From NCBI GenBank assembly GCA_000004985.1, contig GG739238.1: a stretch of 3,007 bases of DNA; one strand, given 5' to 3'. Each line of letters starts with the position of its first letter. Position 1 is the first letter of the stretch. Shown piece by piece: positions 1 through 1,394 of this stretch. Made by a program: the position numbers and the translations under genes. This DNA comes from Naegleria gruberi. Lineage: Eukaryota. A model generated the notes under the pieces. The model was not told where the DNA came from, did no database searches, and saw nothing but the letters and a program-made list of their open reading frames with translations.

Positions 1-147
1 CAAATCCAGATCAATAGCGACATTTGTAATTCCAGAATGGAGCTCCTCGATTTGGTGGCCTCTACTCTTAAAGCTATTAAAGAAGAGAAAAAGTATCACA
101 AGAAGGAGAAACGGATAGGTACATTTTGGACTGAACAAGCAAAATAA
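1..147 (+). CDS. 3' end (48 codons) of an ORF entering from upstream; unknown product with a K/E-rich tail
   Basis: Frame 1 is open from position 1 to TAA at 145-147 and reads QIQINSDICNSRMELLDLVASTLKAIKEEKKYHKKEKRIGTFWTEQAK*. No motif recognised. It could be the end of a host gene or of an upstream element ORF. Confidence 0.3.
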   Translation, partial: QIQINSDICNSRMELLDLVASTLKAIKEEKKYHKKEKRIGTFWTEQAK

Positions 148-476
148 GCAAGGACGTACAAATTGATTTTGGATGTCCAAAAACTTGTTAAGGTAAAATT
201 AAGATTTGTCCAAAAAGTTTGTTTATGAGTTTTTAATGAGTAAATCATTGAAAAATCACAATTAAATACCTAATAAGTGGAAATGATCAATGAAACTCCA
301 CTTCTCCTGTTTTTATTGTCATTTCTTTGTTGGATTTGTTGCTGGAGAATTTTTTTTCTTGAATTTGTCCTCAACATCTCTTGAATTGAATCTTTCGAGC
401 ATCATTAAAAGCACAAACAAAATGTTGCTGGCCTGTTTGTTTAAGGGTGGGCTAGCAAATTGATGTTGAACGTTCA

Positions 477-518
477 AAATGGACGTGTTGGTCCAGAGAT
501 TTTCTGGGCGTCCAATAA
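477..518. repeat. Copy A of a ~42-bp imperfect direct repeat containing palindrome TGGAC-gtgttg-GTCCA (480-495)
   Basis: aatggacgtgttggtccagagattttctgggcgtccaataat aligns to 558-598 aatggacatgttcgtccaaaatgtttctggaccaacaattt at roughly 75% identity. The 5-6-5 inverted repeat is conserved in both copies. Confidence 0.6.
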
Positions 519-557
519 TCAGTAAGCAAAATACGTTTGGGCCGTATTATTTATCTT

Positions 558-598
558 GAATGGACATGTTCGTCCAAAATGTTTCTGGACCAACAATT
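558..598. repeat. Copy B of the ~42-bp direct repeat containing palindrome TGGAC-atgttc-GTCCA (561-576)
   Basis: See copy A. The palindrome arms TGGAC/GTCCA are perfect, and the shared flank is (A)AAT ... TTTCTGG. Confidence 0.6.
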
Positions 599-668
599 TG
601 TATTTTGGACGACATAATGTACCTATCTGTTTCTCAAGGATGCTTTTAATCAAACCATTATCCGAATT

Positions 669-1394
669 ATGGAACAAATTCGAAGGAACGACGTTCATAA
701 TTGCTCATCTGGATGGAAACTTATACTTCAAACCAGAGATTTAGGGATGTTGGTTTCGATTAAGGAAGAAACCTTCAAACTTTACACTAGAAACTATAAT
801 GGTTTCTTATGGTTTATTACTGCATTCAATATTTCAATGGATGACACTTATGCTATTGAGTATTATGCAGCTTATCTTACAATTCAAGGTCAAACATCTC
901 GTGTTGAAGCCTTGAGACCATCCCTTCAATTTTGGGCCAATATTGAGAGAAGAGTTTTTCCAATTTCATGGTCTTATGATAAGATTAAAAGAGGAATTAT
1001 TTTTATTTGGTCCTTGATTGATAGAAAAGCTTTGAAACGTGATCCAATTTTCTATCATCATATTGAAGGTTTCATTCAGAGAAAAGATCATTATGATCCT
1101 TTCATTTTCAAACTCACTAGTGCCATGTTAGTCATTGGTTTCAGACTTTTCGCTAGACCAGGTGAATTAGCTAGACTCAAGTGGTGTTATGTTACAAAGC
1201 TTAGAAATGGTAACATCAAATTAGATCTCAGTGGTCACAAAACAGATTTCTTTCTACTAGAAAAGCCGATGACTATTGACAAGCATCTTGAAAATCCTTT
1301 AGTGTGTCCAGTGAAATTGCTTTTTGATTACATGTCTAATTCTGAGCGAAGTGAAGAATGGACTTGTTTTCATTGTAAACTTAATAAAATATAA
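669..1394 (+). CDS. Tyrosine recombinase-like protein (core-binding-like N-terminus plus first half of the catalytic domain; C-terminal HxxR / Tyr half absent). Possibly truncated or a pseudogene.
   Basis: 241-aa ORF. The frame is closed upstream by TAA at 615-617 and has A at -3 of the ATG. TYAIEYYAAYLTIQGQTSRVEALRPSLQFW resembles the YR N-terminal core-binding/SAM-like helix pattern. LVIGFRLFARPGELARLKWCYV matches box I (G-x-R-x-x-E-L-x-x-L-x-W, catalytic Arg-I). NIKLDLSGHKTDFFLLEKP fits the beta-hairpin Lys segment. CPVKLLFDY matches the CPVxALxxY(L) motif seen in phage-integrase, DIRS and Crypton YRs. The ORF ends 18 aa later (TAA 1392-1394), and the downstream frames up to 1523 contain no HxxR...Y pattern. 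Confidence 0.5.
   Translation: MEQIRRNDVHNCSSGWKLILQTRDLGMLVSIKEETFKLYTRNYNGFLWFITAFNISMDDTYAIEYYAAYLTIQGQTSRVEALRPSLQFWANIERRVFPISWSYDKIKRGIIFIWSLIDRKALKRDPIFYHHIEGFIQRKDHYDPFIFKLTSAMLVIGFRLFARPGELARLKWCYVTKLRNGNIKLDLSGHKTDFFLLEKPMTIDKHLENPLVCPVKLLFDYMSNSERSEEWTCFHCKLNKI

Follow-up and report, generated by a model that had tools for sequence, protein, structure and literature searches.

A 530-bp insertion with inverted-repeat ends occupies positions 106-635 of the window, defined here as the whole 3,007-nucleotide stretch of Naegleria gruberi contig GG739238.1 that was analyzed. The insertion is MITE-like and is probably (at a probability of roughly 0.7) a non-autonomous cut-and-paste DNA transposon that carries subterminal transposase-binding sites and depends on a transposase supplied in trans. 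It lies within the coding sequence of a tyrosine recombinase (YR) retroelement and is missing from the five related loci that were compared (L001, L002, L003, L012, and L013). Under this reading, a supposed region of regulatory or recombinase sites becomes a transposon nested in retrotransposon coding sequence.

The boundaries of the insertion were set by comparison with L003, a metagenome contig (ENA ERZ929261) of 4324 bp that contains gag, pol, and a YR. This contig was found through protein P0014, which was returned by a protein search with the peptides of the excised sequence. The window and L003 are 100% identical over positions 1-107 and 98% identical over positions 636-1334, and the two aligned segments overlap on L003 by AAGGA (blastn). 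The empty site in L003 reads ...cacaagaag|gatgctttt..., with no sequence between the two sides and a single AAG. In the window, this AAG is present as a target-site duplication, with the left copy at 103-105 and the right copy at 636-638. The four more distant relatives (37-56% amino acid identity) are gap-free across the site in both reading frames. A YR profile search of JGI metagenomes returned only two short contigs, which serve as further empty sites. Because the five relatives are uninterrupted, the difference is a gain in the copy in the window and not a loss elsewhere. Judged by these alignments, the 530-bp insertion is specific to the retroelement copy in the window.

The ends of the insertion form a terminal inverted repeat (I2) of 23 nucleotides. 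The left copy, GAGAAACGGATAGGTACATTTTG, is at 106-128 on the plus strand. The right copy is at 613-635 on the minus strand, with the reverse complement GAGAAACAGATAGGTACATTATG, and is complementary to the left copy at 21 of 23 positions (91%). Both copies start exactly at the boundaries that were set independently by L003. The inverted repeat opens with GAGAAACRGATAGGTACATT, so that the insertion termini are GAGAAAC...GTTTCTC. A 3-bp target duplication is the most parsimonious length on alignment; 4 or 5 bp is less likely but compatible with the sequence, because the first two bases of the element and the two bases that follow the right AAG are both GA. Assuming a 4- or 5-bp duplication would leave the inverted repeats unequal.

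The window itself is, on the basis of its coding content, part of a DIRS-order YR retrotransposon of the N. gruberi type, because it contains a YR ORF, a gag-like ORF, and a reverse transcriptase with an RVT_1 domain. The ORF at 669-1394 encodes 241 amino acids and is 95% identical to an N. gruberi “predicted protein” (P0001). It is also 37-58% identical to proteins with the phage-integrase domain PF00589, and is identified as a YR because its relatives carry this domain. Downstream are the gag-like ORF (1430-2518) and then the reverse transcriptase in an overlapping frame. No Pfam domain was found in the ORFs at 1-144 and 669-1391 or in gag. A published count gave seven DIRS-like copies for N. 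gruberi, without classifying them further (PMC3266345).

Two overlapping ORFs of this retroelement are split by the insertion. The C-terminal part of the pol ORF is located at 2-105 and continues at 639-744 on the plus strand, in frame 2 before the insertion and frame 1 after it. The YR ORF is located at 639-1394 on the plus strand in frame 3, with an N-terminal extension at 1-105 in frame 1, and is truncated after ...LLFDY. Removal of positions 106-638 restores both overlapping reading frames. The C-terminus of pol in the excised sequence ends in IATFVIPEWSSSIWWPLLLKLLKKRKSITRRMLLIKPLSELWNKFEGTTFIIAHLDGNLYFKPEI followed by a stop and is 100% identical to the pol of P0014 and L003. The excised YR reading, with KKYHKKDAFNQTIIRIMEQ in its N-terminal extension, is 100% identical to L003 over 104 amino acids. 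The pol ORF of L001, a related metagenome contig, ends in ATFVVPDWPSSIWYPILLKLSERIVPVTRKMLTITPLSELSDKFETSSFLVAHLHGKWYKQ and a stop, and the window encodes the two halves of this end at 2-105 and 639-744. Both restored ORFs align without gaps to the five related loci at 37-100% amino acid identity, and also to the pol proteins P0014 and P0015. In P0007, the YR N-terminal extension spans the insertion point, with ...KKYHKK joined straight to DAFN....

The pol C-terminus and the YR N-terminal extension overlap in two frames in the window (1-105 plus 639-760), in L001 (2644-2955), and in L003 (2940-3251). Approximately 35 codons are under dual coding constraint, because both of the overlapping peptides are conserved across the five loci at 37-100% identity. 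Three N. gruberi RefSeq gene models (P0001, P0003, and P0004) are YRs of these retroelements. In P0004, a peptide of the pol frame (MLIITPLSEL...) is fused to the YR body by a predicted intron, and this fusion has the look of an artefact of annotation. A 9-nucleotide indel is present in the YR near window positions 985-1005 and L003 positions 3395-3402, where the window encodes KRGIIFIWSL, P0001 reads KRGITLIWSL, and L003 reads KS--LIWSL. This indel is copy-to-copy variation inside the retroelement family. At the other end of the window, pol is read in frame 3, which is open from approximately position 2262, and gag in frame 2, which stops at 2516-2518, so that the two overlap. Expression of pol might involve a frameshift or an internal start at the ATG near 2455. 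This gag/pol overlap crosses a ACAACAAC repeat tract at 2358-2401 that encodes poly-Asn in gag.

The insertion contains a dense cluster of one short motif. A first-pass annotation had noted copies of this motif, and all were found where it had placed them: TGTCCAAAAACTTGTT at 174-189, TGTCCAAAAAGTTTGTT at 207-223, GTCCAAAATGTTT at 572-584, GGACGTACAAATT at 152-164, GGACGACATAATG at 607-619, and GGATGTCC at 171-178. The copies at 174-189 and 207-223 form a near-identical direct repeat, 33 bp apart, with 15 of 17 positions identical and one indel. The likeness between GGACGTACAAATT and GGACGACATAATG that it also reported is weak (8 of 13 positions).

Its view that the clustering is non-random is borne out by the counts. 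Positions 150-625 contain 11 copies of GGAC/GTCC, against 1.79 ± 1.24 in shuffled sequence. None of 5000 dinucleotide-preserving shuffles reached 11, and since the motif was picked post hoc from the sequence, P-values from the shuffles are optimistic. The same 5000 shuffles gave an expectation of 0.81 for TGGAC/GTCCA, which is present nine times in this range, and of 0.07 for GTCCAAAA/TTTTGGAC, present four times. The density of GGAC/GTCC is 22.6 per kb in the insertion (106-635), whereas the remainder of the window has 2.0 per kb and the related 4.3-kb contig L003 has 2.1 per kb. This excess of approximately tenfold over two independent backgrounds is not due to chance. A twelfth core, TTTTGGAC at 124-131, is located just left of the range 150-625.

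The motif is concentrated near the ends of the insertion. All 12 cores are inside 106-635, and 11 of the 12 are no more than 151 bp from an end. The left end has four cores in its first 102 bp and the right end has seven in its last 151 bp, which leaves a single core for the 200-bp center. The core of the motif is GTCC and its fullest form is GTTC(A)GTCCAAAATGT, with some copies arranged as TGGAC-N6-GTCCA palindromes. A long form, GTCCAAAA(A/T)(G/A/C)T, is common to five copies, at 128 and 607 on the minus strand and at 175, 208, and 572 on the plus strand.

The left arm contains an extended copy, GTTCAGTCCAAAATGT, at 121-136 on the minus strand, located where the left inverted repeat meets the interior of the insertion. 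This copy matches GTTCGTCCAAAATGT at 567-581 in 15 of 16 positions with one indel. It is followed by a GGAC core with a weak flank at 152-155 on the minus strand. The plus-strand segment at 167-189 is composed of the palindrome TTTTGGA-TG-TCCAAAA (167-182) and the sequence ACTTGTT, and covers the copies noted above at 171-178 and 174-189. The copy TTTGTCCAAAAAGTTTGTT at 205-223 on the plus strand is the direct repeat (D17) of 174-189, 33 bp downstream. A further direct-repeat family (D1) pairs 159-182 with 456-479 at 83% identity. The motif-poor center of the insertion contains a lone GTCC on the plus strand at 367-370, which is 261 bp from the nearest end.

The right arm contains a 39-bp unit in two plus-strand copies, at 478-516 and 559-597. 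These are 74% identical as direct repeats (D3) and 80% mutually complementary (I4), and each is composed of one TGGAC-N6-GTCCA palindrome and one TGTTGGTCCAGA copy. Unit 1 contains the palindrome TGGAC-GTGTTG-GTCCA (480-495), TGTTGGTCCAGA, and GCGTCCAAT, with sites at 481, 491, and 510. Unit 2 contains the palindrome TGGAC-ATGTTC-GTCCA (561-576), GTCCAAAATGT (572-582), and TCTGGACCAACA, with sites at 562, 572, and 587. The last copy, GTCGTCCAAAATA at 603-613 on the minus strand, adjoins the right inverted repeat and is 25 bp from the right end. Outside of the insertion, a half-site at 1356-1368, GAATGGACTTGTT, matches the left half of a palindrome (558-570) in 12 of 13 positions. This half-site was dismissed as a genuine motif copy, with one or two chance matches estimated for the window.

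The inverted symmetry of the insertion extends beyond its terminal repeats. Alignment of the left half with the reverse complement of the right half gives a score of 27.5, against 12.4 ± 2.0 for shuffled sequence. With the terminal 25 nucleotides removed, the score is 19.5, against 12.0 ± 2.0. As single-stranded DNA, the insertion folds with a free energy of −83.2 kcal/mol (shuffles −52.4 ± 5.0 kcal/mol, z = −6.2), and the first 20 nucleotides pair with the last 20. Its GC content is 34%. The insertion contains no ORF longer than 62 amino acids, and the longest (62 amino acids) is partly composed of flanking sequence. No homologue of its ORFs was found among 5.8 billion proteins, where a query with six ORF translations matched only the pol/YR flanks.

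No Rfam family and no tRNA was found in the window, and an origin as a SINE or structured RNA was rejected on this basis. A 20-mer of the inverted repeat gave no match in JGI metagenome contigs, IMG/VR, or GTDB genomes, which are collections without the N. gruberi genome. A pattern for the palindrome (15 fixed and 2 two-fold degenerate positions) gave eight matches in IMG/VR, which by a rough estimate is no more than expected by chance.

A second junction, unrelated to the insertion, is located at 1334/1335. Here the similarity to L003 (98% identity) stops inside the YR ORF, at ...GATTACATG|TCTAATTC..., and a different YR-retroelement family starts. The sequence past this junction begins with a 95-bp leader whose homology to the leader of L003 is weak (score 21, against 11.3 ± 2.0). 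The leader is followed by a gag that differs from that of L003 and by a reverse transcriptase that is only 68% identical to that of L003. From these similarities, it appears that the second family either inserted into the first or recombined with it, and a short ACATG/TG common to both may have been the site. The half-site at 1356-1368 is beside this junction. The window, as read from the alignments, is a nest of three elements: the 3' part of retroelement A, the MITE-like insertion within A, and retroelement B joined to the truncated YR of A.

The termini of the retroelement family can be described from L003. This contig contains a direct repeat of 246 bp (61-306 and 4079-4324) with 239 of 246 positions identical, which starts with TGTTCTTATCG approximately 30 bp past the YR stop. 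The start codon of gag is part of the repeat; the 5' copy has ATG at this place, whereas the 3' copy has ATA. By its layout, this arrangement looks like split direct repeats (PAT-like) or LTR-like ends rather than DIRS1-type inverted repeats. These direct-repeat termini are relevant to the N. gruberi elements of PMC3266345, whose classification is unsettled.

Reiterated subterminal sites are a feature of class II elements, where they are recognized either by the transposase or by an accessory protein that binds DNA. Examples are the TnpA 12-mers of En/Spm, the AAACGG repeats of Ac, and the sites of the Myb-like protein of Harbinger. The insertion has the classic layout of transposon ends, because an inverted repeat is combined with reiterated subterminal sites in both orientations. 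In the favored reading, a 530-bp element would have inserted into the overlapping pol/YR coding region and duplicated AAG. A transposase supplied in trans would bind the reiterated GTCC sites and pair the two ends. The short target duplication would then result from cutting at the inverted repeats followed by staggered integration. The enzyme that mobilizes the element and binds the GTCC sites is presumably a DDE-type transposase, and the element would be expected to be multi-copy.

The target of PIF/Harbinger elements is usually TWA. A 3-bp duplication is canonical for both Harbinger and EnSpm, and the terminal signature of CACTA elements is 5'-CAC(TA)...GTG-3' (PMC12730594). The length of the duplication found here points to PIF/Harbinger or CACTA-type enzymes. 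The element is not assigned to a superfamily, because its termini are GAG...CTC and not CAC...GTG, its triplet is AAG and not the usual TWA, and no autonomous partner, other copy, or related DNA was found in the collections searched. A literature search on Naegleria MITEs, introners, and DNA transposons returned nothing specific, and no description of a MITE in N. gruberi was found. The element may belong to an undescribed family, but it is of an ordinary kind, and its likely mechanism is a textbook one. The result is a precisely bounded candidate MITE family for N. gruberi, for which the inverted repeats, the target duplication, and an empty site are available, together with a motif that is a candidate for protein binding.

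The explanation from which the first-pass annotation started is that the cluster is part of the retroelement, as a promoter or UAS, as arm- or core-type sites of its own tyrosine recombinase, or as degenerate terminal repeats. The cluster directly precedes the first ATG (669) in the YR ORF, which agrees with this, and the TGGAC-N6-GTCCA palindromes at 480-495 and 561-576 resemble recombinase core sites. However, the region described there as upstream non-coding sequence is an insertion that splits two conserved, overlapping ORFs. Conservation among retroelement copies was the annotation's own proposed check; the whole region is missing from L003, whose flanks are 98-100% identical, and from the four more distant relatives, and the non-coding leader and 3' region of L003 contain zero GGAC/GTCC. 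A role as promoter, UAS, or arm sites of the retroelement is therefore extremely improbable. The general idea of a binding-site array or degenerate terminal repeats does fit, but the sites belong to a different element from the one that encodes the ORFs. The interruption of coding sequence could also reflect a spliceosomal intron or introner-type element spliced from the pol/YR transcript, as P0007 joins ...KKYHKK to DAFN... and the right end of the segment is a pyrimidine tract followed by AAG. This is barely credible. The starts that would restore the frame (103-108) give AA, AG, GG, GA, AG, or GA, and none is GT, GC, or AT. The nearest GT...AG pair (119...638) would remove 520 nucleotides and shift the frame, and the segment is missing from L003 at the DNA level. 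A one-off, non-mobile event (filler DNA taken up when a break was repaired, a palindromic duplication of local sequence, or an artefact of assembly) would account for the single copy seen in the protein search and in the metagenome, IMG/VR, and GTDB collections, which lack the N. gruberi genome. Such an event is unlikely, since an inverted repeat of 21 out of 23 positions at the exact boundaries and a precise 3-bp duplication are a signature of transposition and not of filler DNA, and the subterminal repeats are organized internally in the way that is typical for the ends of transposons.

A different mode of transposition was also considered, in which the insertion was moved by a tyrosine recombinase in the manner of DIRS1. 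The inverted ends would be circularized, a 3-bp identity would be shared with the target, the GTCC palindromes would be YR core sites, and the element would land preferentially in YR retroelements. Inverted terminal repeats and a 3-bp identity at both junctions match the DIRS1 integration model, the host locus consists of nested YR retroelements, and the palindromes of the insertion have a 6-bp spacer. The triplet on the minus strand, CTT, fits the NTT termini of DIRS1-like elements (PMC3266345). The insertion, however, has no internal complementary region. The best internal match to the circle junction of the right and left ends scores 12.5, against 9.7 ± 1.4 (maximum 19) for shuffled sequence, and is confined to the GTCCAAAATGT motif without crossing the junction. 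The local retroelement family has direct and not inverted terminal repeats (L003 61-306 and 4079-4324), a preference of target is not demonstrable from one insertion, and a DDE transposase explains the 3-bp duplication and inverted repeats more simply. Movement in the manner of DIRS1 is accordingly very unlikely. The related proposal that the YR of the surrounding retroelements, and not a DDE transposase, moves the insertion as a 530-bp ITR-type, DIRS-like, non-autonomous parasite by AAG/CTT identity is highly improbable. If this proposal were true, no YR-binding site of a eukaryotic YR retroelement system would have been defined by sequence before the TGGAC-N6-GTCCA palindromes and the GTCCAAAA repeats.

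The insertion shares individual features with several known systems. The core sites loxP, FRT, and dif have inverted binding elements around a 6-8 bp spacer. The palindromes TGGAC-N6-GTCCA (480-495 and 561-576) and TTTTGGA-TG-TCCAAAA (167-182) are similar in sequence to these tyrosine-recombinase core sites, although their arms are only 5-7 bp. The element that contains them also has inverted repeats and a target duplication, and YR recombination does not produce these. The insertion is like DIRS1-like retrotransposons in its inverted terminal repeats, its 3-bp CTT/AAG identity (PMC3266345), and its site inside a YR retroelement, but it has no internal complementary region and no RT or YR coding sequence. 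The host element is like the PAT-like and DIRS-order YR retrotransposons in its gag, RT, and YR (PF00589 in relatives), in the overlap of its pol and YR ORFs, and in the direct repeats of L003 at the 5' end and after the YR. The motif cluster, in contrast, is no part of this host retroelement. The insertion has the 3-bp target duplication and subterminal repeats of CACTA/En-Spm elements, but its termini are GAGAAAC...GTTTCTC and not CAC(TA)...GTG. The length of the duplication also fits PIF/Harbinger elements (Tourist-like MITEs), with the triplet AAG in place of the usual TWA. In its size (530 bp) and its AT-rich, non-coding sequence, the insertion is like MITEs and other non-autonomous class II elements, such as dSpm of CACTA/En-Spm and the Tourist-type derivatives of PIF/Harbinger. 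It also resembles MITEs in its terminal inverted repeats, short target duplication, subterminal motif in both orientations, and strong fold-back potential.
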